Assembly: GCA_041666745.1 (NCBI GenBank)
Contig: JBAYGI010000006.1
Span: 3,474-67,473, forward strand
Reading direction: 5' to 3'
DNA length: 64,000 nt
From: Candidatus Magasanikiibacteriota bacterium
GTDB lineage: Bacteria > Patescibacteriota > Patescibacteriia > Magasanikbacterales > GWA2-37-8
Made by a program: the position numbers and the translations under genes. Positions 3,701 through 49,433 of the stretch are shown here, in pieces (position 1 is the stretch's first letter; every line of letters starts with the position of its first letter). The notes below the pieces were generated by a model. It was not told the DNA's origin and did no database searches. It worked only from the letters and a program-made list of their open reading frames with translations.

Positions 3701-3830
3701 GTATCAAAACTACTCTCGTCATGACTTTAAAACAATTAAAGTGATAACGAGATGGAGTAGCCTTGATTAGCACAACCCCAGAGCTCGCCGGCCGAGGCCG
3801 GAGGGGTTGGGGGTTGAGTGATAGGAGGGG

Positions 3831-4412
3831 TTACTCGAACAGGTCGAGGTCTGCCAGCTCGCGCACCTTGACCTGCGCGGGCTTCTCAGAGACCAGATAC
3901 GCGTCATAGTTGCGGACGCGATTCTTGTCCTTCGAGAACAGCGTGACGAGCCACCACGCCTCGTCGCCGACCTGGATCGAACCGTTTGGGTTTATGGCGA
4001 TCACCACGCCCTGCTTCTTGGCGTTGGTGAGCGAGAGCCTGGGGCCATCCTTGCAGATGATCCCAGAGATCTTCTCGGTTGGCACGACCGTCTCACCCTT
4101 CACGTTGGTGTAGGTGAGGTTGGTGGGCGGATCGAACGCCAGATCCGGTTCCGGCGTGAGAATCGGTTCTCCGTACTTCCCCGGAGAGGCCATGTAGTAC
4201 TGGCGCTCCCCGTTCGGTCCGAGATTCATGATCATATACTGGCCGGGTTTCTTTCCGACCTCGACCGTCCACTGACATGTAGGGTTGGTGGAGCAAAGAT
4301 CCCGCAAAAACTTCTTCAGCGCCGGCCGATTGTCTGAATCGACCAACGCGAATTGCTCATCAGGGCTAAGCTCGCGCCACGCCGCGATCATCGCGTCGAA
4401 TGTTGGCTTCAT
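3831..4412 (-). CDS. hypothetical protein on GC-rich island A
   Basis: GC about 58% against a ~35% background. Probable start at MKPTFDAM, preceded by an AAAGGA RBS. TTGACT-17-TATTTT promoter near 4550-4583 (minus orientation). GC hairpin ccggcctcggccgg after the stop. No recognisable family. Confidence 0.55.
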   Translation of the reverse strand: MKPTFDAMIAAWRELSPDEQFALVDSDNRPALKKFLRDLCSTNPTCQWTVEVGKKPGQYMIMNLGPNGERQYYMASPGKYGEPILTPEPDLAFDPPTNLTYTNVKGETVVPTEKISGIICKDGPRLSLTNAKKQGVVIAINPNGSIQVGDEAWWLVTLFSKDKNRVRNYDAYLVSEKPAQVKVRELADLDLFE

Positions 4413-4615
4413 GTACTTTTCCTTTTTCCACCCTTTTACGGGCAGTACTTCCAACCACATGGCCAGAAGGAAGAACGCGGGTACCCCGGTCTTCTTTTGA
4501 GCCTGCCAAACAGGACCAAAAGAAAACCGCGAGTATCACAAAAACAATAATATAAAATAACACAAATTAGACAATTAGTCAATATTTGGGGGGGGTGCCG
4601 CCTATTTAAAAGATT

Positions 4616-5575
4616 TTACTTGATTAAAAAATTAAATAAATACCCAGTGAATATAATTCCCAACCCGACAACAGAAGAAAAAATAATAATAAGTTTTGTT
4701 TTCATTATCTTTTTCAAAATCATAAACTCCGGCAAAGACAAAGCGGTTACCGCCATCATGAAAGATAGAACTGTGCCTATAGCCACACCTTTTTCTGTCA
4801 AAGCACTCACCAAAGGAATCACTCCGGCGGCGTTGGAATAAAGCGGTATGCCAATTAAAGTAGCCAGTGGCACCGCATACCATTTATCTGCCCCCGCATA
4901 TTGTGCCAAAAAGTCCGCTGGAACGAAACCGTGTATCCAAGCACCCAAACCCACCCCAATAATAATATACAACCAAACTTTTTTAATTATACTTTGGGTG
5001 TAATTTTTGGCGTATCGCATTCTTTGTTGCCAACTAATTTTAGATGTAGTGTCGCCCAGCTTTTTTGTGTTTTGAGATAAATCCACCAGCAAATGTTCGA
5101 CTGGCAAGCGACCGATCACCAATCCGGATATTACAGATATGACCAAACCACTGGTGACATACAACAACGCTATTTTCCAACCAAAAGCTCCGAGAAGTAA
5201 TACTAGCGCGACTTCGTTAATCATCGGAGAGGCAACCAAAAAAGAAAAGGTCACCCCCAAAGGCACGCCCGCTTCAATAAAACCCAAAAACAGGGGGACG
5301 GCACTACAAGAACAAAACGGAGTGATAATCCCAAGTAAGGCGGCCAAAATATTACCAACGAATTTATGCTTGCGAGACAAAATTTGTTTAACTTTTTCTC
5401 TAGGCAAAAATGAACGCAAAACAGAAACTGCAAAAATAATAACCGCCAACAAAATAAAAATTTTGATGACATCAAAAATGAAAAAATTTATCGCCTCGCC
5501 GGCCAATGATTGCGAAGACAGATGAAAGACCGAAAAGGTGAGCCAGTCGGCTAATATTTTGATGGGGTAAAACAT
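4616..5575 (-). CDS. UPF0718/YraQ-family permease (COG0701)
   Basis: Polytopic membrane protein with the PFCSCSAVP CxC motif. Confidence 0.7.
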   Translation of the reverse strand: MFYPIKILADWLTFSVFHLSSQSLAGEAINFFIFDVIKIFILLAVIIFAVSVLRSFLPREKVKQILSRKHKFVGNILAALLGIITPFCSCSAVPLFLGFIEAGVPLGVTFSFLVASPMINEVALVLLLGAFGWKIALLYVTSGLVISVISGLVIGRLPVEHLLVDLSQNTKKLGDTTSKISWQQRMRYAKNYTQSIIKKVWLYIIIGVGLGAWIHGFVPADFLAQYAGADKWYAVPLATLIGIPLYSNAAGVIPLVSALTEKGVAIGTVLSFMMAVTALSLPEFMILKKIMKTKLIIIFSSVVGLGIIFTGYLFNFLIK

Positions 5576-5677
5576 GACTGATATTTTATCACAACCTATG
5601 CAAGTTTACCATCAACCTATGCAAAAATATCTATATTTTAACAAAAACTTCCCTTTTACAAGAGAAGCTTCAGTTTG

Positions 5678-5750
5678 TCGGGGTGACAGGGCTTGAACCT
5701 GCGGCCTTCTGGTCCCAAACCAGACGCTCTACCAACTGAGCTACGCCCCG
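5678..5750 (-). tRNA. tRNA-Pro (TGG)
   Basis: Cloverleaf folded by eye. Anticodon loop tttggga, G37, 7-bp acceptor stem with one mismatch. Confidence 0.8.
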
Positions 5751-5771
5751 AATTAAATTGTTTCCAGCCTA

Positions 5772-5843
5772 GTGCCGGGAGTGAGGATCGGACTCACGAC
5801 GCAAGGCTCTTCAGGCCTTCGCTCTACCACTGAGCTACCCCGG
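5772..5843 (-). tRNA. tRNA-Phe (GAA)
   Basis: gccggggtagctcagtggtagagc... with anticodon loop ctGAAga and T-arm gttcgatcc. Confidence 0.85.
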
Positions 5844-5862
5844 CAATTTTCCTTGTAGCTTA

Positions 5863-5935
5863 GTGGACCGACAGGGATTCGAACCCTGGACCCCCGCGTT
5901 GCAAACGCGGTGCTCTACCAGCTGAGCTACCGGCC
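5863..5935 (-). tRNA. tRNA-Ala (TGC)
   Basis: G3:U70 wobble in the acceptor stem (Ala identity element). Anticodon loop ttTGCaa. T-arm ggttcgaatcc. Confidence 0.85.
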
Positions 5936-5943
5936 CAAAAAAC

Positions 5944-6000
5944 ATTTGGAACAGAAATAATATACCAATTATTCACAAAAAAGTCAATGAGTGGTATAAT
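5944..6000. promoter_or_regulatory. back-to-back divergent promoters
   Basis: TTCACA-17-TATAAT with an extended TG reads into mgtC. TTGACT-17-TATATT on the minus strand reads into the tRNA-Ala/Phe/Pro operon. Confidence 0.45.
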
Positions 6001-6024
6001 TCTCTCATAAATTAACTTTATTTT

Positions 6025-6447: not shown

Positions 6448-6460
6448 AATTACCAACAAA

Positions 6461-6491: not shown

Positions 6492-6498
6492 TGTAAAA

Positions 6499-8256: not shown

Positions 8257-10651
<2,395 letters not shown>

Positions 10652-13113: not shown

Positions 13114-13356
13114 TCAGTGACCTTGAATGCCACCGGCACAACCACAGCTCCTAAGGCCATCGCCGTCTATGGCGATTTCAACCTCACAGCGAAAACAACG
13201 ACCCTGTTCCGACAAACGTTTCTCACGCTTATCGGAGCAAGACCTACATGTTGAGTCGCCATGTTCAATCTTGCCCGTGTTTGACCATGTGTTCGGAACC
13301 ATTTGCTCACGAGGAAATTCCCCGTCACATTTACGACACCGGTAAAGATCTGCCAT
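13114..13356 (-). CDS. small Cys-rich zinc-ribbon-like protein on GC-rich island B
   Basis: Start MADLYRCRKCDGEF behind an AAGGAGGAG RBS. CxxC pairs CRKC, CRSC, CFRC and CGC. GC-rich. Terminator hairpin gggggcgcgccgc...gcgccccc downstream. Confidence 0.5.
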   Translation of the reverse strand: MADLYRCRKCDGEFPREQMVPNTWSNTGKIEHGDSTCRSCSDKREKRLSEQGRCFRCEVEIAIDGDGLRSCGCAGGIQGH

Positions 13357-13568
13357 TCCCCTCTCCTCCTTGCTAATAAACAAAAAATCGCCATGTTAAG
13401 CGATTTTGCCTCGAACAACAAACCTGACCTAGGTGTGCTACCCAAGGCTTTGTTTATGGTTGGTAAATTTTGAGAAAGTTTTCTTTTTCATACTGTATCA
13501 ATGTATTAACACATTAACACACTACCGATAATCTGTCAAACCAACCCTGTGGACAAAATAAACCCACT

Positions 13569-14715: not shown

Positions 14716-15678
14716 TTAATTTTTACCGATAAACAAATCCAGCATTAACCCCAGATCAGCCTGCCCGGTTTTTGCTTTAAAATCCATATTCAACAACTGA
14801 TCATATATTTTGACCATCTGTTGTTTGTTATATTTCTTAACCAATGACAAGTTTTTCTTCACCACAAATGGATGCAGGCCAAGTTCTTTGGCAATAATAT
14901 CGCTGGTGATATTATCCTGTTGTTCAAAAAGACTGCGCATCTGCAACAAAATCCGAAACTGCCAAACAATCAGACCAAATAATTTGAAATCATCTTCGCC
15001 CAAACGGCGCTGTTCAGTCAACAATTTATAGGCTTGTTTTTTGTTGCCTGACACAATCGCCTCCACCATATTAAAAACATTGTCGTCCACTTTTTCTTCC
15101 AAAAATAAATTTATTTCCGGCACTCCAATTTCTTTTTCACCGCCAAAAGCACAAAGTTGATCCAACAAGGAATTTAAAAACCAACCATCTTTGCCAGCAT
15201 TTTGCGCCAAATAATTTATCGCCGTAGTGGAAATTTTTGCGCCACGTTTTTTAATTTCACTGGCGATAAAACCGGTGAGTTGCACCCCAACCAACAGAGA
15301 AAACTCTTGAGCATATTTTTCTTTTTTTAACATTCCTTCCAGCTCTTTTATTTCTTTCACTTTACCCAACCCTTCGCCCTGCCAAAAAATTATGATATTG
15401 CTTTCAGGAATTTTATTATCTTTGATACGTCGAATTAATTCAACCAAAAGTTCTTTGTCTGAAGTAGATAAAATATTTTCTATTACTACTAGGCGTTTTT
15501 CAGATAAAAACGGTGTCGAGATGACTTCACTCAAAACCTTGCCTGGTTCAGATTTCTTCCCATCAACAAAAACCACGTTGTACCCTTGTGGATCACGTGT
15601 TTGTTTGAATCGTTCAACCTGCTCTTTGAGATATTGCCGACTACGGAAAGTGTCCGCGCCGTGGATGTAGATTATCAT
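14716..15678 (-). CDS. holA: DNA polymerase III delta subunit
   Basis: Length and N-terminal MIIYIHGADTF...LVVIEN pattern. Confidence 0.7.
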   Translation of the reverse strand: MIIYIHGADTFRSRQYLKEQVERFKQTRDPQGYNVVFVDGKKSEPGKVLSEVISTPFLSEKRLVVIENILSTSDKELLVELIRRIKDNKIPESNIIIFWQGEGLGKVKEIKELEGMLKKEKYAQEFSLLVGVQLTGFIASEIKKRGAKISTTAINYLAQNAGKDGWFLNSLLDQLCAFGGEKEIGVPEINLFLEEKVDDNVFNMVEAIVSGNKKQAYKLLTEQRRLGEDDFKLFGLIVWQFRILLQMRSLFEQQDNITSDIIAKELGLHPFVVKKNLSLVKKYNKQQMVKIYDQLLNMDFKAKTGQADLGLMLDLFIGKN

Positions 15679-15803
15679 AGCGGGGATATTGTAATACTTT
15701 TCTGGATGATTGACAAATATAGAAAAATATGATACAAAGCAGTGTCATGCTGAGAAGTTTTCTACAGCCTCTGACACCGTTCGTTGACTCAAAGGAGACT
15801 ATT

Positions 15804-16391
15804 TTGAAGAGGTTCATTGTCGCAACACTGGCGATGATTGTGGGGTTCTCCACCACAACAGCCGGTGCAGACACATTTTCCGCCAGTCGAGTCAGGATGC
15901 TCATCCATGGCTCCAACCAGTTCAGCGAGCAGTTGGGCGCGTCTGTTCACTTCATTCCGGCTGGAAATCTGCTGGGAGAGGTAGCACCGTTGATCTACGG
16001 CTCGTTCGACTGGACACCGATTCCGGAACTGACAATCAGCCCTACCGTGGGCTGGACGTTCAAGCCGGATGAGATGGTTGTGTCGCTCCGCCTCGCCCCG
16101 AAAATCGGCAAGTTCTGGGGGTGGGTGGATCTTGAAGAACGACCGACGTCCCGTGCATTCTACTGGTTCGTGCAGGCTCAATACCAGGTAACGAGCTTCC
16201 TGCACATCGGTGCCGAGCAAGAGTCATGGGGCGATTTCCACGACTTCAGCACGGCTTCGCACGGTGGCGGCCCGAACGTCCTCCTCCGCTTCGGAAGAAA
16301 CTTCGGCACAGACCTTGCACTACACGCCCGTTCCCTCGGCGGCAGTGCGGTCAATCTGGAGTTCTTTTCCCGGATCCATTTGTTCCTCTAA
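15804..16391 (+). CDS. GC-rich secreted protein, paralog 1 (island C)
   Basis: TTG start after an AAGGAG RBS. Signal peptide MKRFIVATLAMIVGFSTTTAGA. Beta-rich alternating pattern ending NLEFFSRIHLFL. TTGACA promoter at 15709. The ORF-track ATG at 15729 is probably too far upstream. Confidence 0.5.
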   Translation: MKRFIVATLAMIVGFSTTTAGADTFSASRVRMLIHGSNQFSEQLGASVHFIPAGNLLGEVAPLIYGSFDWTPIPELTISPTVGWTFKPDEMVVSLRLAPKIGKFWGWVDLEERPTSRAFYWFVQAQYQVTSFLHIGAEQESWGDFHDFSTASHGGGPNVLLRFGRNFGTDLALHARSLGGSAVNLEFFSRIHLFL

Positions 16392-16470
16392 CCGGTTGCG
16401 CGCTACCGTCCAACAAAGCGCGCAAAATCTTTTTCAACTTAATATATTTAGGTTTAAGAAGATAATAAAA
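16392..16470 (+). repeat. conserved 3' element copy 1 (hairpin ttgcgcgc...gcgcgcaa)
   Basis: About 90% identical over ~80 bp to 19343-19425. Followed by a terminator at 16471-16506. Confidence 0.7.
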
Positions 16471-16511
16471 AAAACCGACTGCCATCTGCGATCGGTTTTT
16501 TTATAAAAATC

Positions 16512-16709
16512 TTATTTCTTTTTCACAATTATTTTATCCACAAAAGTCATCGCATCTTTGGGTTTTTTAAAAATCAATTGCTTGCCAGTTTTTCTTTCAT
16601 CTTGCGCCTCTTTTAAAACTGACAACAACAAATCTGACGATTCACTAAATTTAGTTTTTGTGTTTAAAATAGTGCTCATATAATATACGCCGCATTGACA
16701 ACTACCCAA
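16512..16709 (-). CDS. hypothetical small protein
   Basis: 65-aa ORF upstream of the DUF3800 gene. Weak. Confidence 0.25.
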   Translation of the reverse strand: MGSCQCGVYYMSTILNTKTKFSESSDLLLSVLKEAQDERKTGKQLIFKKPKDAMTFVDKIIVKKK

Positions 16710-16779
16710 TTTTCTGATACAGTATATTCAGGTAACAAGAAACTCGGGACAAATCCGCCGAAAGGGGAAAGCCGTAAGG

Positions 16780-17349
16780 CTACCGAGTCATCTGACCGTC
16801 CACAAGCTGGACGGTTATTTTTTTCTCAAATAATTTAGTTAATTTAATAGTTTGCTCTGTGGAATTATCTGCGTGAGAACGAAATAATCCTGCGATTGCG
16901 TCCGCTAATCTCAAGCCCGCCGACGCTTCGTCCCTTAACAATCTAATTTTCTTTACAGAAATATTTTTATCACGCAAAACCTTTTTTAGTTTTTGTTCAT
17001 ATCGTTTTGACTTTTTACCATCTATAATTATTTTTTTAATATTGTGTTCTATTATTAAATGCTGAAAAATATTTTCAAAAGCAATATTATAATTTATTGG
17101 ATTATTTACAATGGCTAGTTTAAAAGAAAAATCCAAATTACTCACTACAGTAAGAAAACTTGCTCGTTTTTTCCATCCATTTGTTGAACCATAATCCGAC
17201 CAATGAAACGGTTTTATGCATAATAATTTTTCTACTTCAACAACCGCTTCTTCCATTTCTTTGATACTTTTTGCTTGTAAATAAACAAAAGAAATAGTTG
17301 AATGCCCTACTTTTTTATGAATACCTGATTCGTCTATAAAAATTATCAT
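16780..17349 (-). CDS. DUF3800 family protein
   Basis: N-terminal MIIFIDESG signature. Confidence 0.55.
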   Translation of the reverse strand: MIIFIDESGIHKKVGHSTISFVYLQAKSIKEMEEAVVEVEKLLCIKPFHWSDYGSTNGWKKRASFLTVVSNLDFSFKLAIVNNPINYNIAFENIFQHLIIEHNIKKIIIDGKKSKRYEQKLKKVLRDKNISVKKIRLLRDEASAGLRLADAIAGLFRSHADNSTEQTIKLTKLFEKKITVQLVDGQMTR

Positions 17350-17394
17350 ACCCCCTCCTTTTTAAAACTCATTTTCTACTAAATTAAATACCTA

Positions 17395-18543
17395 TTAAAT
17401 TTTTTTCCCCCACAGCTGATCAAAATACGATTTAAAACCAGCATATATTTCGGGCTGTGCAAAATGAATCACGGTAGGATTTTCGCCATACAAAATAATA
17501 AAAGCCTTGTTGTGAAACAAATTTATTTGCATCGGAATTTTTGGAGCCGACGCGTAAAGTTTCAGATGACTAATTTTTTCCATACCGTCACCAGACTGCA
17601 CAAATCTTTTTTTAATTCGATCAAAAGATTCACTATATACCAACATGTTGGCTACAACTCCTTTTTTAATTCTATCCGTATGAAATTCATCATACAATTT
17701 TTGGACAACACCATTTTCATCTCCGGCTGAAGCGCCCAACACAAAATATTCTTCACCTGTTTTTAATTCATCCAACATTTTATAAATAGTTTTTTTCAAA
17801 GAACCAATCCCGGTCTCTACCACCACCTGTTGACTCCAAAAATATTCAAAATATTTTTTCATCGCATCCACTACCGTACGACTGCGAATATGAAAAACCA
17901 GTGGATCTTCGTCGATTACCATGATAGATAATTTGTCATAGCAAAAATTAAACCAAAGGGGCATTTTGGCATCAAACGGCAGATACCTCGCTTCTGTAAG
18001 ATCTTTTTTGTTGCGATCATCTAAAATTTCTTGTTCGACGGTGTGGTCAAAGAGAATTTTAAAGTTAACATTTTTCTTAATCCTTCTTTTGTGAAAATCT
18101 TTCCAATCAAACGAACCACCTTCGGTTGATTCTCTAGTTGCACCAAGCACATACATTGTTTCGCCCGGTGGCGCGTCAGCACTTCTTTCGGTAGTATTTT
18201 TTATTGCCTCCACTCCTTCAAACACACCGACCTCACGCATTCCAACCTTGTGTCTTTTTTGTAGTTCGGAGACTAGGTTTTCTGCGGTCTTTCTTTTATT
18301 CTCCAAATCTTCAATTATATGTTCTGGGCCATTCGCCGAAAACTCAAAAACACCTTTACGTTCGGCCTTGGATACCATGTCTCTTTTGACCAGTTCCTCT
18401 AAGGCAGTATAGACGAGGTTGCGATGAAGGCCTGTTTTGCTGATTATCTGACCGGCTTTGGCTTTTTGCAAATCTATTAAGGCCAAGTACACAATAGCCT
18501 CATTTTTACCAAAGCCTAATTTTGCTAGTTCATTTTCTAACAT
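17395..18543 (-). CDS. TrmB-family transcriptional regulator (N-terminal wHTH plus C-terminal domain)
   Basis: N-terminus LAKLGFGKNEAIVYLALIDLQKAKAGQIISKTGLHRNLVYTALEELVKRDMV. Confidence 0.55.
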   Translation of the reverse strand: MLENELAKLGFGKNEAIVYLALIDLQKAKAGQIISKTGLHRNLVYTALEELVKRDMVSKAERKGVFEFSANGPEHIIEDLENKRKTAENLVSELQKRHKVGMREVGVFEGVEAIKNTTERSADAPPGETMYVLGATRESTEGGSFDWKDFHKRRIKKNVNFKILFDHTVEQEILDDRNKKDLTEARYLPFDAKMPLWFNFCYDKLSIMVIDEDPLVFHIRSRTVVDAMKKYFEYFWSQQVVVETGIGSLKKTIYKMLDELKTGEEYFVLGASAGDENGVVQKLYDEFHTDRIKKGVVANMLVYSESFDRIKKRFVQSGDGMEKISHLKLYASAPKIPMQINLFHNKAFIILYGENPTVIHFAQPEIYAGFKSYFDQLWGKKI

Positions 18544-18661
18544 ATTGTCATATTATTTATGATAACATCATTATAATATGCTTAGCCAAAATTGTCAACT
18601 TGCTAGGATTGTTGTCAAGTGGAATGTGACTGTTTTGGGCTAAAGTTAGCCAAAATACCCT

Positions 18662-18690
18662 TGACAAGATTATGAATATGTGATATACTT
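18662..18690 (+). promoter_or_regulatory. consensus promoter TTGACA-17-TATACT for paralog 2
   Basis: Perfect hexamers seen directly. Preceded by ttagccaaaat direct repeats at 18580-18655. Confidence 0.55.
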
Positions 18691-18856
18691 TGCTGTTACG
18701 ATGAATAACCGTAATGAAGTTCTTTACAACTGCCAGACGGAGTAGTGAACGGCAAAACTGCTTTTTACTACCTCGTCTGGCACAAGCAATATGGGTTCAC
18801 AAATGTGACTCGATTGACCAGTGCAGGTGGGCGGACTTATGTCCGGGGAGAATACC

Positions 18857-19342
18857 ATGAAGTCGACCCTCATCGTTCTCGTGCTCGCGTTCGTCTCTCT
18901 CACGGCCGCCACGGCCATCGGGCTCACCCCCGGCCTCAGTTTCCGGGAGGGATACGTCGTCCTGCTCAAGGACGGAGGTACCCCCGGACCGGTGGGTACC
19001 CGGATCGACTTCACTGTTTCTGAGAAGATCTCAGAGACGGTGTCCCTCATCGGAGGGGTAGGGGTGGGTACCCCGAACGATGTCTTCAAACCATCCCTGC
19101 GGATAGCCGTGGGTGGTGCGATGGCATTGGTGGGCAGGTGGTCTGTCCACGCCAGCGGACTGTTCCAGCGCAACATTGGTTACGGCGGGAAACCGTCGAC
19201 AACAGCGCTGGCTGTCGGAGGAGGTCCGACTTACAAAGTTGCAGATGGCGTTGCCTTGTCCTTGTCTTTCGGACCAGGCAAAATGCTTGACGGTGACTGG
19301 TCGTTTCTCATCCAGCCGTCGATTAGCATCTCCTTTCTGTAA
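18857..19342 (+). CDS. GC-rich secreted protein, paralog 2 (island D)
   Basis: GGGGAGAA RBS then ATG. Signal peptide MKSTLIVLVLAFVSLTAATA. Beta-rich. Ends ISISFL. About 62% GC. Confidence 0.5.
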   Translation: MKSTLIVLVLAFVSLTAATAIGLTPGLSFREGYVVLLKDGGTPGPVGTRIDFTVSEKISETVSLIGGVGVGTPNDVFKPSLRIAVGGAMALVGRWSVHASGLFQRNIGYGGKPSTTALAVGGGPTYKVADGVALSLSFGPGKMLDGDWSFLIQPSISISFL

Positions 19343-19425
19343 CCCATAACCGGTCGCGCGCTACCATCCAACAAAGCGCGCAAAATCTTTTTCAACTTAA
19401 TACCTTTAGGTTTAAGAAGACAACA
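19343..19425 (+). repeat. conserved 3' element copy 2
   Basis: Aligns with 16392-16470. Terminator at 19424-19457. Confidence 0.7.
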
Positions 19426-19466
19426 AAAAACCACCCGAGAGAAGGGTGGTTTTTTGTTTATAAATT

Positions 19467-22148: not shown

Positions 22149-22176
22149 TTGTCATTCCCGCAAAAGCGGGAATCTA
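22149..22176 (+). repeat. hairpin repeat family 1, copy b (left terminal inverted repeat of the mini-cassette)
   Basis: ttgtcattcccgcaaaagcgggaatc. Confidence 0.6.
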
Positions 22177-22340
22177 ACCAATATTTTACTATTCTTTCCC
22201 TTTTTTAGCAAACCCGCCTTCGCTAAAGCTACGGCGGGTAAAACAAAAAAATCACCTGGCGGTGAAATAGTAGGGCGTCGGGCAGGGGTGTCATGTCCCC
22301 CTGCCCGACGGAAGTCCCGACAGCTCGCTCGATCACGGAG

Positions 22341-22478
22341 CTACGGGAAACGGTTGCGGTTTCGGGCCTCGGCGTTCATCTCGTACTCATCGTAGCTGCT
22401 GCGGGCGTGGCTGCAGTTGTTGACGAGCTTCTCGCACTGCGCGTCGGTCATGATGTACTCGGTCTCGTTGCGAAACAT
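22341..22478 (-). CDS. 45-aa Cys-containing peptide inside the GC-rich mini-cassette
   Basis: AAGGAG RBS 8 nt before the ATG. Translation MFRNETEYIMTDAQCEKLVNNCSHARSSYDEYEMNAEARNRNRFP. GC about 60%. Confidence 0.35.
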   Translation of the reverse strand: MFRNETEYIMTDAQCEKLVNNCSHARSSYDEYEMNAEARNRNRFP

Positions 22479-22587
22479 GAGAATGCTCCTTGCTCGGGTT
22501 GCTTCCTCCGACCTGCTTCCGCCCCAACGAGCGAATATGACAGGTACAGATAAGAATCATTTTATATGAGAGAGAGATAATAGTCAA

Positions 22588-22612
22588 GATTCCCGTTTCC
22601 ACGGGAATGACA
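22588..22612 (-). repeat. hairpin repeat family 1, copy c (right terminal inverted repeat, inverted orientation)
   Basis: Reverse complement is tgtcattcccgtggaaacgggaatc. Confidence 0.6.
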
Positions 22613-22630: not shown

Positions 22631-22732
22631 AAACCGCCACAGAAAATTACTTTTGAGCGGGTTATGCGCCGAGGCGCATCCTTTTGCCCTCGCGGGCAAA
22701 AAAAGCGAAAAAGTCATTTTCTGTGGCGGTTT
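22631..22732. repeat. R3 structured element copy 1, inside an 18-bp inverted-repeat terminator stem
   Basis: Core 22653-22710 is ttgagcgggttatgcgccgaggcgcatccttttgccctcgcgggcaaaaaaagcgaaa. Flanks aaaaccgccacagaaaat / attttctgtggcggtttt followed by a T-run. Confidence 0.6.
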
Positions 22733-26409: not shown

Positions 26410-26472
26410 GTCATTCCCGCGAAGGCGGGAATCCAGTCGCTCGTTACTGTCATCCTGAGTATAGCGAAGGAT
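26410..26472 (+). repeat. hairpin repeat family 1, tandem copies d1 and d2
   Basis: tgtcattcccgcgaaggcgggaatcc plus the diverged tgtcatcctgagtatagcgaaggatcc. Terminator at 26487-26534. Confidence 0.55.
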
Positions 26473-26641
26473 CCCTTAAATCCATTTTCACAACAGAACA
26501 AAAACCACCGACCAATCACCGGTGGTTTTTTATTTGAAAAGGCACTATCCCCATTGACTTCTTTCTTTTTTTTAATTAGTATGAAACCTAATGTTCGTGG
26601 CTAAACTCTAACCACGAAACCCAACCACCAGGAGAACTGAC

Positions 26642-27013
26642 ATGACCCTGAAATCCGAGCTCGTGGCAATACGCCAAGACAAGCAGGAAAGTCGCGACAG
26701 AGAGGACCAGAGGATAGTTCAGGAGAGTCACGACCACATGACTGCTCTGATCGACAACCTCCCTGACATGCTGAGGGCACAAGCCCGACTCAACGGCGGT
26801 ACGTTGTGGGTCAGCACATGCTACACCACCCATGTGAAGTGCGTGGTTCGTGACGAGGAAGGGGAAGACACTGTGTGGCACAGTGAGAAGACTTATTTCA
26901 CAGGGGCAGACTGGAGACGACTGGAAGTGTGGGTCCGGGAAAACGGCCTCCAGATGAATCGTCATCCAGATCAGGCCGCTGGGGGTGCGCCCTTGTACGG
27001 GATTGAGCCCTAA
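26642..27013 (+). CDS. hypothetical protein on GC-rich island E
   Basis: AGGAGA RBS. TTGACT-17-TAGTAT promoter at 26544. 123 aa with no recognised family. 11-bp-stem hairpin at 27027-27056. Confidence 0.5.
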   Translation: MTLKSELVAIRQDKQESRDREDQRIVQESHDHMTALIDNLPDMLRAQARLNGGTLWVSTCYTTHVKCVVRDEEGEDTVWHSEKTYFTGADWRRLEVWVRENGLQMNRHPDQAAGGAPLYGIEP

Positions 27014-27127
27014 CTCCAACCAACATGTCCCACTCGCACAGGCGAGCGAGTGGGACAGAGGCAATAGTATCTACATTGATCACTCGCCACGTAATTTGAA
27101 AATATTTTAAAATATGTTTTCAGATTA

Positions 27128-27192
27128 CGCGAGTGATCTAAACGCTTTAAATTAAAAAACATCGAAATTAAATTCGGTGTTTTTTTATTCCC
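27128..27192 (+). repeat. R4 direct repeat copy 1 (includes a terminator hairpin)
   Basis: gagtgatctaaacgctttaaattaaaaaacatcgaaattaaattcggtgttttttt. Near-identical to 28951-29010. Confidence 0.7.
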
Positions 27193-28598: not shown

Positions 28599-28950
28599 CA
28601 AATCACCCTCGCACAGCACTCTTTCGATTTGATTGCTGATGGGGTGATTTTTGTTTAAATTGATTAACATAATAGTAACAAAAATACCCCGACAAAAGTT
28701 GAGGTATTTTTTCATGCTTGCCTTCGGCTTTACATTTAGCCGAATAGGGCTGACGCCCCACAAGCACGGTGTTATGATAGCACGAGAATTAGTAAAAGTC
28801 AATTAGTTATACACAAGATGCAGGTAATATGGACGTTTTTGACACGTTTTATCCATACTTAAAACTTATAATGATTTAGTAATACATTTTAAGTATACTT
28901 AAAATTGGTTTTGATTAATGCATCAAGTCCTCCTGCAAATGTTTAAATTT

Positions 28951-29010
28951 TGTGAGTGATCTAAACGCTTAAATTAAAAAACATCGAAATTAAATTCGGT
29001 GTTTTTTTGT
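28951..29010 (+). repeat. R4 direct repeat copy 2
   Basis: See copy 1. Confidence 0.7.
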
Positions 29011-29175
29011 TTCCAATTCACCTTTACACAAAACTCGGGCGGTTTTTTCTGCCTCTAGGCAGAAAGAGGCGCATGTACAGTATGTTGCCATAAAACTAGC
29101 AACATGATATATTATGTTTAGCTACAAAAATTAAATTTTTGAGCACAAATGTGCTATATTAACTAAAATTAAAAT

Positions 29176-30078
29176 ATGACGGAAAAACCCTTTCCCCAAA
29201 CTATGGCGAAACCAACACAAGAAACGGAGCCACAACCAGCCGATGTGGACAGACGAGAAGCCGAGATGACCACACTAAGAGAAGCAGTGACCACACTAAG
29301 AGAAGCAGTGGCCACACTACAAGCCAAGATGGCCGCACAACAAGCCAAGATGGCCGCACTAAAAGAAGCAATGGCCACACTGCAAGCCACTGTGGCATCT
29401 TATAGCGAGACCAGGCGCACATCAGAAGTTGTTTCCAAAGCCGAGTTTAACGAGGCAGCCAGAACAATAGAAAAAACATTACTAAAAATAAAAGAAATAA
29501 CCGAGGCATTCAGTACTTGGGCCGACGAATGTGCCGAAATTGCCAAAGAGATATCACATACTACTAACGATGGCTATCTGAAGCTGGTCGATGCATCTGA
29601 TGTGCCCAATGTGGCAAGAGATATTATTACCTGTGCAGAAGAACATTTAAAACGCCTGCATGCAACAATACAAGATGTCTTACAAGACCCGGGCACACCT
29701 TTGAGTTTGGGGTTAATAAACAAATTTCACCCGGATAATTGGTCACCAGAATTATGGCAAAACTTACAGAGTTCTCTTATTCGTTTATTCCTTCACAAAG
29801 TAATGACCGTTAAAAAAGAGGTGTTGATGGCACAAGCTAACAAACTTGGCCTTATTCAAAAAAGCGTACACTTGAACGGTTTAGAAAAGTGGTTTGGATG
29901 CCTAGACAAGTTGAGAGCTAGTGAAGTAAACAAAAAAGACTTTATACCTATATGGCGAGAACGTTTTGCTGGAATGGGAGTGTCGGACGGCCTATATGCC
30001 ACCGGCTTTGACGTTGAAATAGCAACTGGAGACACAGTTGCTTACCGATCACCTCCAACGATAAAAATCAGTGGATAG
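29176..30078 (+). CDS. hypothetical protein with a GC-rich tandem-repeat coiled-coil N-terminus (island F)
   Basis: 21-nt and 18-nt DNA tandem repeats encode TTLREAV x2 and AKMAA x2. GC falls from about 57% to about 40% along the gene. Confidence 0.45.
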   Translation: MTEKPFPQTMAKPTQETEPQPADVDRREAEMTTLREAVTTLREAVATLQAKMAAQQAKMAALKEAMATLQATVASYSETRRTSEVVSKAEFNEAARTIEKTLLKIKEITEAFSTWADECAEIAKEISHTTNDGYLKLVDASDVPNVARDIITCAEEHLKRLHATIQDVLQDPGTPLSLGLINKFHPDNWSPELWQNLQSSLIRLFLHKVMTVKKEVLMAQANKLGLIQKSVHLNGLEKWFGCLDKLRASEVNKKDFIPIWRERFAGMGVSDGLYATGFDVEIATGDTVAYRSPPTIKISG

Positions 30079-37854: not shown

Positions 37855-37949
37855 TTTAAAAAAATATTATTTCAATTGAGCGGGTTATGAGCCCGAGGCT
37901 CATCCTTTTGCCCCCGCGGGCAAAAAAAGCGAAATGAAATAATATTTTT
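37855..37949. repeat. R3 structured element copy 2, inside a 16-bp inverted-repeat terminator stem
   Basis: Core 37877-37932. Flanks aaaaaatattatttca / tgaaataatatttttt. Compensatory C-G to A-T change in the inner hairpin relative to copy 1. Confidence 0.6.
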
Positions 37950-38580: not shown

Positions 38581-38752
38581 ACCTTTTAATTTAATGTATT
38601 ATGCTGAATATATTACCACATTATTAGCTTTTAGTCAATAATCCACACAATCCACAACTTATCCACATACTTTGCACAGTTTTGTTGTTTACAACATTTG
38701 TGTTGATACATATCTGTGCTAAAATAACATAAAAGATTTAAAAAATCAACTT
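38581..38752. other. oriC, left part (DnaA boxes)
   Basis: TTATCCACA at 38661 plus aatccacac and aatccacaa variants between rpmH and dnaA. Confidence 0.6.
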
Positions 38753-40147
38753 ATGACCAACAATGAAATATGGCAGGCGGTTCTATCCGAATTAGAGCTG
38801 GTTATTTCCAAAGCAAACTTTAACACCTGGTTTAAAAACACTGGGATCGTTTCTTTTCAAGACGGACACGTTATTTTGTGCGTTCCAAACACCTTTAATC
38901 AGGCCTGGATTGAGAAAAAACACCACCACCAAATCATCCAGTCATTGGAAAGAATTACCGCCCTTCCTATCCGAAAGTTGGAATACAAAATTGAAAATAT
39001 CAAAAATATAGTAGAAAAAATCATCAACACATCCTCTACTCCTCAAGTTAGCGCGGAATCAGAAAAACCGCCGTCTTACGCTCAACAAATTAACCACGCT
39101 CCGGTGCCGGCTCATGGATTCAACATCAATCCAAAATATAATTTTGACAGTTTCGTGGTTGGCAAGGGGTCGGAGTTGGCTTTTACTGCCGCCAAGGCGG
39201 TCGCTGATCGCCCAGGAGAGGCCTACAACCCACTATTCATCTATGGTGGCGTCGGTCTAGGAAAAACCCATCTTTTACAAGCAGTTGGCAATGAGTTGCT
39301 TAAAAAAAATCCACAAACCAACATCTTATACGTTAGCGCTGAAAAATTTACCAATGATTTCATTACCTCTTTGCGCAGTGGTGGAGCAAGAGACTTCCAA
39401 AACCGCTACCGCACCATCGACGCCTTGTTGATCGATGATATCCAGTTTATTGCCGGTAAAGATGCCAGCCAAGAATCATTTTTTCATACTTTCAACGAAC
39501 TCCACCAAGCCAACAAACAGGTAATCCTCACCTCTGATCGCCCACCCAAAGCCATTCCCGCCCTTGAAGATCGTCTAAAATCCCGTTTTGAGTGGGGTAT
39601 GATTGTGGATGTTTCCGCTCCTGATTTTGAAACCAGAGTAGCAATTTTGGGTAAAAAATGCCAAGAAAAGAATTTCATTTTGGACGACAAAACACTCAAT
39701 ACCGTCGCCACTATTGTTCAAAGCAACATCCGCGAGCTCGAGGGAGCGTTAAATAAAATCATTGCTTTCCACCAACTAAAAAATATGGCTCCGACCGCCG
39801 AATCGGTAAAATCAATCCTTTCAAGTTTTGATTCGGCCTCGGCGAGGCGATCCGTCACTTCCCAACAAACCATCGAAACGGTTTGTACGTTTTTTAATGT
39901 TTCCATTGAAAATGTTTGTGGAAAAAGCCGAGAAAAGAAACTGTCTTATCCTCGTCAGATAATTATGTATATTTTACGAAATGACCTAAAAATGTCTTTC
40001 CCTTCCATTGGTGATGAACTGGGTGGACGCGACCATACTACCGCCATGCATGCCAACGAAAAAATCACCAAAGAAATTGACAATGATTTAAAACTAAAAC
40101 AAGAGTTGGAATTAATAAGACAGCGTTTGTATATTAATAATATATAA
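38753..40147 (+). CDS. dnaA: chromosomal replication initiator DnaA
   Basis: Walker A GGVGLGKTHLLQA, sensor motifs, and a C-terminal DNA-binding domain. Confidence 0.95.
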   Translation: MTNNEIWQAVLSELELVISKANFNTWFKNTGIVSFQDGHVILCVPNTFNQAWIEKKHHHQIIQSLERITALPIRKLEYKIENIKNIVEKIINTSSTPQVSAESEKPPSYAQQINHAPVPAHGFNINPKYNFDSFVVGKGSELAFTAAKAVADRPGEAYNPLFIYGGVGLGKTHLLQAVGNELLKKNPQTNILYVSAEKFTNDFITSLRSGGARDFQNRYRTIDALLIDDIQFIAGKDASQESFFHTFNELHQANKQVILTSDRPPKAIPALEDRLKSRFEWGMIVDVSAPDFETRVAILGKKCQEKNFILDDKTLNTVATIVQSNIRELEGALNKIIAFHQLKNMAPTAESVKSILSSFDSASARRSVTSQQTIETVCTFFNVSIENVCGKSREKKLSYPRQIIMYILRNDLKMSFPSIGDELGGRDHTTAMHANEKITKEIDNDLKLKQELELIRQRLYINNI

Positions 40148-40421
40148 AAAATAGTTTTGTTTCTTCGCTTAGTGGTGTGCAAAAGATGTTAACAAGTTGT
40201 GAATAATAAGCTAACAAAAACACCACTTATCAACAGTAAAAAATAAAATTAAAAAAAACACTTTTATCCCCACAGTTTTCCACCGAACTATTAAAAAATT
40301 ATCAACACTGTTTTTGGCTAATTTAAAAACAAAAAACGACTTATTAACTCTTTCCACAGCCTTATTACTATTATTATTTATATATATACTTAATTAAACA
40401 ACATAACCACACCTCTCAATT
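40148..40421. other. oriC, right part (DnaA-box variants plus AT-rich DUE)
   Basis: ttatccccaca, ttatcaaca x2, tgtgaataa, and an AT run ttattactattattatttatatatatac. Confidence 0.55.
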
Positions 40422-41546
40422 ATGAAAATAACCTGCACAAAAGAAAATTTATCAAAAGCCCTTTCGATTGTAGGAGGTATCGCCAACAAGAATACCACCC
40501 TCCCAATACTTGGTAATGTGTTGATTAAAGCCGACGATCAAAACACTGAAATAATCACCACCAACTTAGAGTTGGCTATAATTGCGCACATAAGATCAAA
40601 AGTAGACGAACCGGGGTCGTTTACTGTGCCGTCTAGAACAATAACCGATTTTGTTAGTTTGTTGTCTGACGAAAAAATAGAAATGGAGGTAAAAGAAAAC
40701 GAACTGGTAATAACCTGTGGAAAATCTTCCACAAAAATAAAAGGAACACCAGCCGACGAGTTTCCGGTTATTCCATCAGTAAATACCGGAAACGGATTTT
40801 TGTTTAATGCCGAACAATTAAAAAACGGACTTGGACAAACAGTTTCATCTTTGGCAAAATCAGAAATTAGACCGGAATTGTCCGGAATGTATTTTGGTTT
40901 TAATACCTCTTATTATGCCGGCCTTATAATGGCCGCCACAGATAGTTATCGACTGGCTGAGAAAAAAATAAAAATACTACAAGGTGAGGGCGAGTTTAAA
41001 ATTATTGTTCCAGGAAGAACAACACAGGAAATAATTCACATCTTGTCTTTGGCAGACAACGACGAACAAGAAAAAAACGTCAGAGTTTTGGTTGGAGAAA
41101 ACCAAATTGCGATGCATTATGGAAACATTCAATTAGTCTCTCGTTTGGTTGAAGGCAACTATCCTGATTATGCTCAAATAATACCAAAAGAATTTAAAAC
41201 CTCCGCGGTGTTTGACACCAACAAAATGAGCAAAGAGATAAAGATGGCCAGTTTGTTTACTACCATTGGTGTAAACGCCATATCTTGTCAAATAAACAGT
41301 CGAGAGGGTGTGATGAAGCTTGCCTCTACGTCTTCTCAGACGGGAGAATACAGTTCTGAAATAAGCGCGGAAATAAACGGCGACGATAATTCGATAATGT
41401 TAAACCACCGTTATGTTTTGGATGGCTTAAATAACATAAAATCAGAAATGAGCACAATTAAAATAATAAACGCCGATAGTCCGTGTTTGTTTGTGCCAAG
41501 CAACGACGATAGTTTTGTTTATATAGTAATGCCAATAAGACAATAG
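40422..41546 (+). CDS. dnaN: DNA polymerase III beta sliding clamp
   Basis: MKITCTKENLSKAL... with three-domain length. Confidence 0.9.
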   Translation: MKITCTKENLSKALSIVGGIANKNTTLPILGNVLIKADDQNTEIITTNLELAIIAHIRSKVDEPGSFTVPSRTITDFVSLLSDEKIEMEVKENELVITCGKSSTKIKGTPADEFPVIPSVNTGNGFLFNAEQLKNGLGQTVSSLAKSEIRPELSGMYFGFNTSYYAGLIMAATDSYRLAEKKIKILQGEGEFKIIVPGRTTQEIIHILSLADNDEQEKNVRVLVGENQIAMHYGNIQLVSRLVEGNYPDYAQIIPKEFKTSAVFDTNKMSKEIKMASLFTTIGVNAISCQINSREGVMKLASTSSQTGEYSSEISAEINGDDNSIMLNHRYVLDGLNNIKSEMSTIKIINADSPCLFVPSNDDSFVYIVMPIRQ

Positions 41547-47591: not shown

Positions 47592-47593
47592 AA

Positions 47594-48040
47594 TTACGAT
47601 TTAAAAAATTTATGCGGTAATAGATAAAAGATAAAACCGGCCACAATTAAAACATCGGCGAGGTTGATCACGCCGGTGCCAATTAAAAAATAATCAATAG
47701 TAGTTTTGTAAATTACTCGATCAATCAAATTCGACATCGCCCCCCAAAAAATAAAAGACAATCCAATAAAAAAATTCAGATGAGTTGGGCGAAAAAAGTA
47801 TTTTATCAAAAGCCAAGCGATAATTAGTATTATCGGTATCGTAAAAAGTATTGTTGCAATATTTGGTAAAGGCAAACTAAACGCCACGCCATGATTTTGA
47901 AACGGATTCCAACCAAAAAATTTTAAAACAATGAATTTGTTTGTAAAAACACGCAAAGATAAAAATTTTATTATTTGATCAAGGCAAAATAAAAAAAAGC
48001 CCACAATAAAAACAATTAATTGTAGGCTTTTGGTTTGCAT
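47594..48040 (-). CDS. lspA: lipoprotein signal peptidase II
   Basis: NHGVAFS, GAMSNLIDR and INLADV boxes. Confidence 0.75.
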   Translation of the reverse strand: MQTKSLQLIVFIVGFFLFCLDQIIKFLSLRVFTNKFIVLKFFGWNPFQNHGVAFSLPLPNIATILFTIPIILIIAWLLIKYFFRPTHLNFFIGLSFIFWGAMSNLIDRVIYKTTIDYFLIGTGVINLADVLIVAGFIFYLLPHKFFKS

Positions 48041-48046
48041 GTTGAA

Positions 48047-48433
48047 TTAAATTTCCTGAGTGATGGCCTTTTTGCAGGAAACACAAGCGTTGGAAGTCGG
48101 ACGGGCGGTCAGTCGTTTTTCGTCGATTGGTTTTTTGCAATATTTGCAAATTCCGTATGTGCCATCCTCCAAACGTTTGAGTGATTGGTTGATATCGCGT
48201 AAAGTTTTTTCAAAACTTTCTTCCAATGGAACTTCGGCAGCGTACTCTGCCACTTCGGCGGCATTTTCGTCGTCTTTGTCGCCGTATTCCGGGTAGTTGC
48301 TGTTGTAATCACCGGAAACACGAGTATTTTTTTTGGTAAATTTGCTCAACTCTTTTTCAACAGTCTCTTTTTCCTGTTGGAGTAATATTTTTATTTTAGC
48401 AACAAAATCTTTGTTAAAAGTCGTTTTAGCCAT
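48047..48433 (-). CDS. DksA/TraR-family C4 zinc-finger protein
   Basis: CKYC...CVSC and an acidic coiled-coil. Confidence 0.65.
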   Translation of the reverse strand: MAKTTFNKDFVAKIKILLQQEKETVEKELSKFTKKNTRVSGDYNSNYPEYGDKDDENAAEVAEYAAEVPLEESFEKTLRDINQSLKRLEDGTYGICKYCKKPIDEKRLTARPTSNACVSCKKAITQEI

Positions 48434-49095
48434 ATGGGTTAGTTATTTTCTATGGAAGTAATTATAGCAGATTATTAAACATAGTCAAGCAAAATTTTTT
48501 GAAAAAAAATAAGGGCGTAGTATCCCGATAAACATTGTTTTAAGGATCTCGCCCTTAAGGCGCTGTACATGGTGAGATAAGTCGTCGTATAGACGAAGCT
48601 ATCATCAGCCAAGACAGTAATACCTTCCGACCGCTTGATGGTATTACCTCAGGCATGAGTCTGACACAAAAGGTCAAACAAATGCAGAAAATTTGAGGTT
48701 ACCGGACAAGAAGTACAGATTCGCCACTACTACTTCAATGTATTTGTATAGCAGTTGTAAATCCACTTCTTTGAACTAAGCAGTTCGTAGGGTTATGTCC
48801 ACTGATAAGTGGACGTTTGAGTTGTAGTAAAGAACTACATAATTAGTATAACACGAGAAATGGGTTTTGTCAATAGGTTTGTATAGACTAGTGTATACAA
48901 ACAAGGTTTGTTTTGTAGTTAGCCAAAAAAATAGAGAGGGTGGCGGTATAAAAAAATTGTTATCCACATCTGGGTGTGGATATACACATAGTTATCCACA
49001 GTTTGTATAGAGTAGTGTATACAAAAACAAGATTGAAAGGTGTGGACAAGGGCGGTAAGGTTGACTTTTTGGGTGAAATATGGTAGTGTGCAGGC

Positions 49096-49278
49096 ATGCC
49101 TCTGCTATTACACGCGACAATCGCGTCTTCGGGCGGGGCGAAAGGCAGTATGTCGGTGTCATTGATCATTTTGATCACAGTTGCGCTCGGTTTCGGCTTT
49201 GGCGTGCTCATTTTTGGAGTGGTAAGGGCAGTACACGCCCAAGCGGTGAAAAACACCAAAGGAAGTGAGAGGGAATGA
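49096..49278 (+). CDS. 60-aa single-TM peptide on GC-rich island G
   Basis: TTGACT-17-TAGTGT promoter ends about 6 nt before the ATG (leaderless-like). Overlaps by ATGA a second 30-codon ORF at 49275-49367 that has a GAGAGGG RBS. Large hairpin terminator at 49337-49395. Confidence 0.3.
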   Translation: MPLLLHATIASSGGAKGSMSVSLIILITVALGFGFGVLIFGVVRAVHAQAVKNTKGSERE

Positions 49279-49433
49279 GTTGTCCTGCACACCCCCGTCG
49301 AGCGACTGCTCACGGGGTACACCTACGGCGAGGTAACAAAAAACCACCCGCACTACGCGAGTAGAAAAAGTATTTTCTATTCACGCGACGGGTGGTTTTT
49401 GTTTTGCCCGCCAAAGCCTTGGCGGAGGCGGGT

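Follow-up and report, generated by a model that had tools for sequence, protein, structure and literature searches.

GC-rich single-gene islands among the core genes of an AT-rich Candidatus Magasanikbacteria chromosome

RESULTS

GC-rich islands and their genes

A stretch of 64 000 nt from a metagenome-assembled genome (MAG) of Candidatus Magasanikbacteria (assembly GCA_041666745.1, contig JBAYGI010000006.1, positions 3474–67473; referred to here as the window) was investigated for short GC-rich segments that each carry one small gene, designated islands I1–I8. A preliminary description of this DNA had listed eight such segments on a host background estimated at about 35 % GC; the measured composition was higher, at 39.6 % GC for the whole window and 38.2 % once the high-GC segments were excluded. 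Islands were delimited by sliding-window and maximal-scoring GC segment analysis, and the codon third-position GC (GC3) of their coding sequences (CDSs) was compared with that of 50 host genes of the window (0.359 ± 0.053, maximum 0.46). The maximal-scoring segments closely matched the island coordinates given previously.

I1: segment 3770–4517, 58.6 % GC; CDS 3831..4412, − strand, 193 aa (209 aa if translation begins at an upstream ATG, 4460), GC 0.58, GC3 0.79 (z 8)
I2: weaker segment 13065–13373, 54 % GC; CDS 13114..13356, − strand, 80 aa, Cys-rich and zinc-ribbon-like, GC 0.51, GC3 0.44
I3: segment 15819–16423, 58.5 % GC; CDS 15804..16391, + strand, 195 aa, TTG start after AAAGGAG, product ending ...RIHLFL, GC3 0.70
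I4: segment 18816–19381, 59.7 % GC; CDS 18857..19342, + strand, 161 aa, signal peptide, Gly-rich, beta-rich, product ending ...SISISFL, GC3 0.70
I5: segment 22253–22533, 61.9 % GC; CDS 22341..22478, − strand, 45 aa, GC1/GC2/GC3 0.48/0.37/0.91 (GC3 z 10)
I6: segment 26612–27062, 57.2 % GC; CDS 26642..27013, + strand, 123 aa, GC3 0.66
I7: CDS 29176–30078, + strand, 300 aa, coiled-coil, GC 0.44, GC3 0.38
I8: weaker segment 49082–49432, 54 % GC; CDS 49096..49278, + strand, 60-aa peptide with a transmembrane segment, GC3 0.57, a marginal member of the class

Five of the eight (I1, I3, I4, I5 and I6) were extreme, with 57–62 % GC and GC3 values of 0.66–0.91, I2 and I8 were marginal, and I7 proved not to be an island. 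Island GC3 z-scores spanned 5.7–10.5, and the sole other segment of the window comparable to the islands was a tRNA cluster (5677–5936). I2 was not retained as a member of the GC3-rich class, its GC excess arising only through its Cys/Gly/Arg-rich protein, and the composition of I7 was host-like apart from an Ala-rich coiled-coil stretch of about 270 nt that reached 52 %.

The single open reading frame (ORF) of each island showed strong three-base periodicity, with GC3 far above a low GC2. The genes are real and protein-coding; each forms a single-gene transcription unit lying between core genes, in agreement with the one-gene-per-island layout first described, and the statement that the products belong to no recognized family also held, none of the eight giving a Pfam match above cut-offs. 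In this window the GC-rich segments reached 30–105 nt into the untranslated regions (UTRs), stopping short of the promoters and the terminator ends. Whole transcript bodies were GC-rich here, unlike the syntenic I1 loci of relatives considered below.

Codon usage and predicted mRNA folding

Codon choice in the islands was flipped from A/T-ending to C/G-ending codons for almost every amino acid. AAG accounted for 77–86 % of Lys codons in island genes, compared with 85 % AAA in the host, and GAG (Glu), TTC (Phe), ATC (Ile) and CTC/CTG (Leu) were likewise favoured; avoidance was strongest for A-ending codons, which made up 5 % in the I1 family, whilst the amino acid composition of the I1 family remained host-like. 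Among Leu codons of island genes CTC exceeded CTG, an order that is atypical of the GC-rich Proteobacteria, where distant I1 relatives occur. The translation-machinery genes EF-G, S7 and S12 were AT-rich at third positions (GC3 0.32–0.35). The bias is therefore not ordinary translational optimization, and translational selection of the usual kind was rejected as its cause.

The minimum free energy of folding of island CDSs was −0.35 to −0.47 kcal/mol per nt, compared with −0.18 to −0.28 kcal/mol per nt for host genes, the exception being the 138-nt CDS of I5 (−0.21 kcal/mol per nt). Against synonymous-codon shuffles, folding z-scores were −2.0 (I1), −3.2 (I3), −4.0 (I4) and −1.3 (I6); family orthologues, which are not independent of one another, averaged about −1.7 and controls about −0.4.

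The I1 family and the persistence of its GC-richness

The I1 product belongs to a conserved hypothetical family, lacks a signal peptide and was modelled (AF2, pLDDT 88) as three N-terminal helices followed by a beta domain; no structural match to this predicted structure was found. The family comprised 28 matches, and an alignment of 27 sequences contained 22 invariant residues. A scan of one genome per species located 23 I1-family loci, in Magasanikbacteria, Peregrinibacteria/Peribacteria, Gracilibacteria, Pacebacteria and some mislabelled MAGs. Distant relatives with 36–46 % identity were present in Trinickia and Paraburkholderia (36 % for these two genera) and in a Bdellovibrionota MAG; those of the Burkholderiaceae had a GC content like that of their own hosts, and their neighbourhoods gave no hint of function. 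The elements of the I1 transcription unit were as follows.

Promoter: TTGACT 4582–4577, 17-nt spacer, TATTTT 4559–4554, − strand
5′ UTR: within 4413..4582, − strand, about 130 nt and about 50 % GC
3′ region: 3668..3830, − strand, a GC hairpin, then a hairpin about 115 nt long with a U run, then a terminator
Bidirectional host terminator shared with I1: 3668–3700

Both the promoter and the 5′ UTR were kept in the alignment with the related locus L009 (related contigs and loci are given L numbers), and the long 3′ hairpin, CTACTCCATCTCGTTAT...ATGACGAGAGTAG-TTTTGATA at about 3700–3800, was kept in L004, L009 and L010. The whole transcription unit was 82–83 % identical at the nucleotide level in these three loci and the window, within neighbourhoods that were unrelated.

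In the Magasanikbacteria-type clade, I1-family genes had GC3 values of 0.69–0.99 within flanks of 35–42 % GC. High individual values were recorded for the orthologues of L010 (6001–6438; GC3 0.993 in flanks of 39 % GC) and L028 (3985–4542; GC3 0.95–0.96 in flanks of 45 % GC).

One syntenic locus held an I1-family gene in eight species (L011–L018). The flanking PGI and glycosyltransferase genes were saturated at synonymous sites (proportion of synonymous differences 0.73–0.80, amino acid identity 0.55–0.59), and the I1-family protein had diverged as far as they had (identity 0.59–0.63); GC3 values of 0.70–0.88 were nevertheless retained in seven of the eight orthologues, compared with 0.29–0.39 in the flanks. 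At four closely related syntenic loci the promoter (TTGACA-17-TAATCT, with a TG extension), an AT-rich 5′ UTR and the ribosome-binding site were conserved, and GC-richness spanned exactly the interval from ATG to stop codon.

Synonymous changes were polarized in L014 and L015 with L013 as the outgroup, the island gene being compared with 11 flanking genes. GC-to-AT changes per ancestral GC site numbered 7 of 90 (0.078) in the island gene and 209 of 666 (0.314) in the flanks (Fisher p = 4e-7). Errors of parsimony would raise, not mask, GC-to-AT counts in a GC-rich gene. Total synonymous change was 0.126 and 0.25, respectively, so that island synonymous sites evolve about half as fast as those of neighbouring genes, at equal nonsynonymous divergence, and the implied equilibrium GC3 was about 0.66 for the island gene and about 0.36 for the flanks. 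This four-fold deficit is the opposite of amelioration, and the GC-rich state of the family is therefore maintained: in these alignments it was shown to travel with the locus through synonymous saturation and to sit near a compositional equilibrium of its own. GC-richness is thus not supported as a mark of recent acquisition.

I3, I4 and the related contig L032

The region 15242–19459, in which I3 and I4 lie, has a close relative in the Logan contig L032.

I3 promoter: 15710..15738, + strand, TTGACA-17-TACAAA
Segment absent from L032: 15736..16720, + strand, carrying I3 with the 84-nt module behind it and a terminator, plus a small AT-rich ORF and another promoter
84-nt 3′ module, copy 1: 16389..16472, + strand, behind I3
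Second promoter of the segment: 16695–16723, + strand, preceding a DUF3800-II RNA
I4 promoter: 18661–18689, + strand, TTGACA-17-TATACT, TG-extended
I4 5′ UTR: up to 18856, + strand, about 165 nt
84-nt 3′ module, copy 2: 19347–19430, + strand, behind I4
Bidirectional terminator after I4: 19422–19458

The I3 product is predicted to consist of a signal peptide and a 12-stranded, porin-like transmembrane beta-barrel (pLDDT 84). When 1.84 billion representatives were searched in full with HMMER, its family came to only 109 clusters at 50 % identity, and 10 sequences were aligned. All of the named relatives sampled were Patescibacteria, and at six of the seven loci compared the family had a higher GC content than its flanks; it is apparently small and restricted to Patescibacteria, as far as the homologues retrieved indicate. 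Patescibacteria are generally described as lacking an outer membrane. The homologue search with I4 returned one true relative only, that of L032.

In L032 the DUF3800 and TrmB proteins were 94 and 90 % identical to those of the window (synonymous divergence, dS, 0.5–0.96). The I4 orthologue had evolved fast by comparison with these flanks (57 % amino acid identity, nonsynonymous divergence, dN, 0.34, dS 1.29, dN/dS 0.27), and its GC3 of 0.81 was above that of I4 itself. Synteny stopped at 19459, right past the I4 terminator. Both junctions of the segment that is missing from L032 fell in the promoter sequence TTGACA...GATAC, and in L032 the I3 promoter directly drives the DUF3800-II RNA.

The secreted beta-rich paralogues of the preliminary description were not confirmed as paralogues: I3 and I4 both have signal peptides and are beta-rich, but no relationship between them was detectable (BLASTP E = 3, hhalign probability 0.65 %), and paralogy was therefore rejected. 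The idea of a secretome fitted part of the set, namely I3 and I4 with their signal peptides and I8 with its transmembrane segment, but not the whole.

The 84-nt module behind both genes begins at the stop codon and combines a GCGCGC-N14-GCGCGC hairpin with a U run and an AT-rich tail. Its two copies were 93 % identical, and it was also present behind the I4 orthologue in L032 (3055–3148); it may represent a 3′-UTR element, or else a terminator that has spread through conversion.

Two further features of this region were recorded. A short AT-rich ORF (about 58 aa; ~16500–16680, − strand) is convergent with I3 and has a common terminator with it. Within 16695–16817, the DUF3800-II RNA (Rfam, 57.6 bits; 16732–16797, + strand) has its own promoter (16695–16723) and its own terminator, and it overlaps the 3′ end of the convergent DUF3800 gene (16780–17349, − strand).

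I5, I6, I8 and further GC-rich ORFs

The remaining islands showed the following elements.

I5 promoter: 22559..22587, − strand, TTGACT-17-TAAAAT
Inverted pair of hairpins bracketing I5 (GTCATTCCCGC-N4-GCGGGAATC): 22151–22174, + strand, and 22588–22611, − strand, resembling repetitive extragenic palindromic (REP) elements
I6 promoter: 26554..26582, + strand, TTGACT-17-TAGTAT
I6 hairpin: 27026–27057, 12 bp, after the stop codon
I8 promoter: TTGACT 49061–49066, TAGTGT 49084–49089, + strand
DnaA-box-like sites (four): 48960–49049, directly upstream of the I8 promoter
25-nt palindromic repeat: 48877–48901 and 49001–49025, directly upstream of the I8 promoter

The ORF of I5, which with 45 codons had been considered below the size of a safe coding call, is probably coding, to judge by its codon-position periodicity (0.48/0.37/0.91). 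Its GC-rich stretch (22253–22533) takes in both UTRs, including a 12-bp perfect hairpin. No relative of I6 was found in metagenome contigs or in the viral (IMG/VR) scan. The −10 box of I8 ends 7 nt before the ATG and no Shine–Dalgarno sequence is present, so its mRNA is possibly leaderless.

Additional GC-rich single ORFs were noted in related loci of the candidate phyla radiation (CPR): L009 8058–8756, L031 9129–10007 and 11655–12023, L003 16872–17516 and L008 10771–10998. These ORFs were of Cys-rich secreted, Pro-rich (292 aa), Gln/Leu/Pro-rich, basic and XRE-type helix–turn–helix character, which suggests that the GC-rich gene class is wider than the families studied here.

Promoters, terminators, leaders and repeats

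Sequence reading and a promoter scan placed TTGAC[AT]-17-TAnnnT before I1–I6 and I8, so the consensus promoters reported earlier for the islands do exist. They do not set the islands apart, since the same scan found equal or better consensus sequences before host TrmB, H+-pyrophosphatase, tRNA-Cys and other genes; the promoter was accordingly dropped as an island-specific trait. A hairpin or terminator downstream of each island was confirmed.

Unusually long 5′ UTRs of about 130–200 nt precede I4 (18690–18856), I2 (13357–13530) and the I1-family genes, those of L004 and L010 among them; they are kept between relatives, have no Rfam match and are possible leader or regulatory RNAs.

Besides the pair around I5, the REP-like hairpin recurred at 9670 and at 26410, the latter 140 bp upstream of the I6 promoter, making four copies in the window where none is expected by chance; it was found in none of 37 related loci. 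The pair was rejected as transposon ends, the hairpin recurring as single copies and no transposase having been found in the ORFs scanned, and the repeat is therefore regarded as a dispersed REP-type element. Two other repeats were seen: a terminator-containing module of about 75 nt after I6 (27119–27192) and before I7 (28942–29014), with 96–98 % identity, and a 42-nt repeat (22669–22710 and 37893–37934).

Chromosomal setting and source records

The islands are spaced 3–22 kb apart with core genes between them; holA, S20, polA, H+-pyrophosphatase, trigger factor and dnaA flank them.

dnaA: 38753–40147
dnaN: 40422–41546
DnaA-box clusters around dnaA: 38639–38667 and 40198–40307

Neighbouring genes identified by Pfam included those of replication and translation (dnaA, dnaN, polA, holA, EF-G, S20), folding and envelope (trigger factor, PBP1) and metabolism (H+-pyrophosphatase, riboflavin genes), together with a type IV pilus operon. 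The GC-skew minimum near 40.4 kb marks the chromosomal origin together with the DnaA-box clusters. From these neighbours, box clusters and skew, the window is the origin-proximal part of a Candidatus Magasanikbacteria (CPR/Patescibacteria) chromosome. Four tRNA genes are present. An Rfam scan of the whole window returned only tRNAs and the DUF3800-II RNA.

The type IV pilus cluster (53891–61159) encodes a PilB-like ATPase, a PilC-like platform protein and several N-methyl pilins, one of which bears a Laminin_G_3 domain; it contains a 186-nt internal repeat (55376–55561 and 55823–56008).

A protein identical to that of I1 in the window is encoded on the ENA contig ERZ27249449:k141_1257714 (71 kb), whose sequence is identical to that of the window. 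At NCBI, the I3 product carries the annotation of hypothetical protein, in a Candidatus Magasanikbacteria MAG.

DISCUSSION

The islands are best read as native accessory genes whose GC-rich CDSs are maintained by a gene-specific fixation bias against synonymous changes from GC to AT, probably selection at the level of the mRNA, and we consider this account about evenly balanced between right and wrong. The maintenance itself was shown for the I1 family and is supported for I3 and I4. As to mechanism, GC-rich codons give messages that are predicted to fold very strongly, with about twice the host folding energy per nt, and for most of them, not all, the predicted stability exceeds that of synonymous-codon shuffles. 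Within an AU-rich transcriptome they might withstand AU-directed RNases and so persist; alternatively, their translation might be confined to conditions in which C/G-ending codons are read well, as a composition-defined expression class. Whole transcription units would be gained, lost and relocated through ordinary recombination, with no dedicated recombinase evident. In their behaviour the loci resemble variable slots, given that L032 lacks the I3 segment and that the I1 unit occurs in unrelated contexts. To judge by predicted features, the products (an exported porin-like barrel, an exported beta-rich protein, a membrane peptide and small soluble proteins) look like accessories of the cell surface or of host interaction.

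Several observations weigh against this reading. The folding z-scores of S7 and S12, at about −2.4 to −2.8, overlap those of the islands. The syntenic I1 orthologue of L012, from a genome of 28 % GC, has host-like GC3, as does the Peregrinibacteria clade of the I1 family, and the constraint is therefore not universal. The rate of AT-to-GC change was estimated from only 13 sites. Persistence was assessed for the I1 family at a locus whose context differs from that of the window copy, and I5 and I6, as orphans, offer no relatives for a comparison of history. The tree of I1-family genes disagrees in part with the flanks, L011 being nearer to L016 and to non-syntenic copies than to L018; taken with the I3 segment, an insertion or deletion that differs between close relatives, this means that exchange among Magasanikbacteria occurs.

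The same genes could be recent imports from a GC-rich donor, either a host bacterium or an unsampled element, placed behind resident promoters and not yet ameliorated. Such import would fit the atypical composition, which in the window reaches the UTRs of I1 and I5, the presence of the I3 segment here and its absence from L032, the closely similar I1 units in unrelated contexts, orthologue GC3 values of up to 0.99 (L010) and 0.96 (L028), the distant I1 relatives in GC-rich Trinickia, Paraburkholderia and a Bdellovibrionota MAG, and the orphan status of I5 and I6. However, these distant I1 relatives apart, the close or named relatives found for I1 and I3 were all Patescibacteria or AT-rich contigs with mismatching labels; the syntenic I1 orthologues of eight species had diverged like their flanks and show a deficit of GC-to-AT changes where import predicts an excess; L032 has a GC-rich I4 orthologue in synteny; and the preference for CTC over CTG is not that of GC-rich Proteobacteria. 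Viral or plasmid cassettes, proposed at the outset, were not borne out either, as no matches were obtained in IMG/VR (I1, I3, I4, I6), INPHARED (I1) or PLSDB (I1, I3), and the ORFs scanned contained no integrase, transposase or phage Pfam domains. Recent import of this kind is unlikely; an unsampled GC-rich reservoir from which genes were imported repeatedly remains a rival chiefly for I3, I5, I6 and the I1 copy of the window. We regard as more improbable still that GC-biased gene conversion (gBGC) in recombination-prone slots, by biased repair of heteroduplexes, lifted GC without any selective value. It would yield the substitution asymmetry that was observed, which also tells against selection on the message, and it agrees with the position of the loci at recombination boundaries (the I3 segment ends in a promoter repeat, and L032 synteny ends after I4), with the discordant I1 tree, with the fast evolution of I4, with the GC-rich UTRs of I1 and I5 in the window and with the presence of type IV pilus genes, which may serve DNA uptake. 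At the syntenic I1 loci, on the other hand, GC is shifted only within the CDS, promoter and 5′ UTR being AT-rich and conserved, and synonymous divergence among L013–L017 lies below that of the flanks at equal nonsynonymous divergence, with no sign of extra allele import. GC3 heterogeneity in bacteria has been attributed to gBGC, but the effects are reportedly much smaller than a GC3 of 0.99, as reached here in a genome of 39 % GC.

Two remaining explanations have little in their favour. Structured non-coding RNA genes, conceivable for I5 alone, would account for a GC peak like that of the tRNA cluster, and the GC-rich stretch of I5, which has double the length of the 45-codon ORF, gave a folding z-score of −3.2. 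This reading was dropped because no island had an Rfam match, and strong three-base periodicity, GC3 far above GC2, conserved proteins that have invariant residues and are confidently modelled, and dN/dS below 1 also make it very improbable. An assembly chimera, in which foreign GC-rich reads were joined into an AT-rich contig, had been raised in the preliminary description and is refuted as far as assembled sequence allows: the jump in composition alone suggests it, whereas an independent Logan assembly of SRR6484324 was 100 % identical over 4126 bp across both I1 junctions, NCBI, JGI, ENA and Logan all list the I3 protein, host-type promoters and terminators adjoin each gene, and GC-rich orthologues occupy syntenic loci in many MAGs labelled from different sources and sample types.

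Atypical GC is a standard sign of recent gene transfer and of MAG contamination, and here it misleads. The island genes are conserved by inheritance and their synonymous sites are protected, so composition-based filters for horizontal transfer or contamination would mislabel them or drop them from CPR genomes. Full-text searches of the literature turned up no account of a GC-rich gene class in CPR genomes. If selection on the message is the true cause, the islands would offer an unusually clear natural example of selection on synonymous sites across whole genes, distinct from codon optimization of the ribosomal-protein type, in organisms of almost unknown biology. It is possible, if rather doubtful, that Magasanikbacteria and perhaps other CPR bacteria keep a cross-species class of small surface or host-interaction genes with GC-rich mRNAs that are stable or conditionally translated, the Patescibacteria-specific barrel of the I3 type perhaps being inserted in the outer membrane of a host; this would amount to a compositional expression code maintained across species. 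A porin-like barrel restricted to Patescibacteria would also bear on how epibionts contact and tap their hosts.

Among known systems, the islands resemble prophage morons and single-gene islets in having one accessory gene of odd composition with its own promoter and terminator, and in their presence or absence among relatives. They differ from morons in sitting among core genes, without viral relatives or phage domains in the ORFs scanned, and from acquired islets in a composition that was conserved through long vertical descent without decay. The atypical GC and codon usage of a recently transferred islet were found, as was the absence of the I3 segment from L032, but not, in the I1 family, the decay towards the host. 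Integron cassettes are likewise small single-gene units with a conserved 3′ hairpin, comparable to the 84-nt module of I3 and I4 and the 115-nt hairpin of I1. Such cassettes, however, stand in arrays next to intI/attI and are usually promoterless, whereas the islands are dispersed singly, each with a promoter and with no integrase in the ORFs scanned; on visual inspection, the GTTRRRY and RYYYAAC cores of attC sites are missing from the 3′ modules. The I3 product shares with the KdgM/NanC channels a 12-stranded antiparallel transmembrane barrel (predicted for I3), at only 7–10 % identity and with no Pfam family at E ≤ 1; those channels reside in the outer membrane, where BAM assembles them, whereas the named relatives of I3 all come from Patescibacteria, generally described as having none. 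The GC-rich RNA-gene islands of Klein, Misulovin & Eddy (2002) are also GC peaks on an AT-rich background, shaped by selection on RNA stability, but the present islands are protein-coding with codon periodicity and the organism is not known to be thermophilic. The GC3 heterogeneity ascribed to gBGC (Lassalle et al., 2015) resembles the islands in its local synonymous GC excess and GC-favouring fixation bias, and differs from GC3 values of 0.7–0.99 in genomes of 35–42 % GC that are confined to CDSs at single-gene scale and accompanied by a slower synonymous rate. In the bldA/TTA genes of Streptomyces and in modification-tunable transcripts, a minority of genes with accessory or conditional products is set apart by selected synonymous codons, as here; in the bldA system a single rare codon is involved, whereas in the islands the whole codon table is inverted. 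Codon usage that is shared among the genes, rare in the genome and kept by selection, as in the bldA case, is what the islands display in their codon inversion, their slow synonymous rate and their deficit of GC-to-AT changes.

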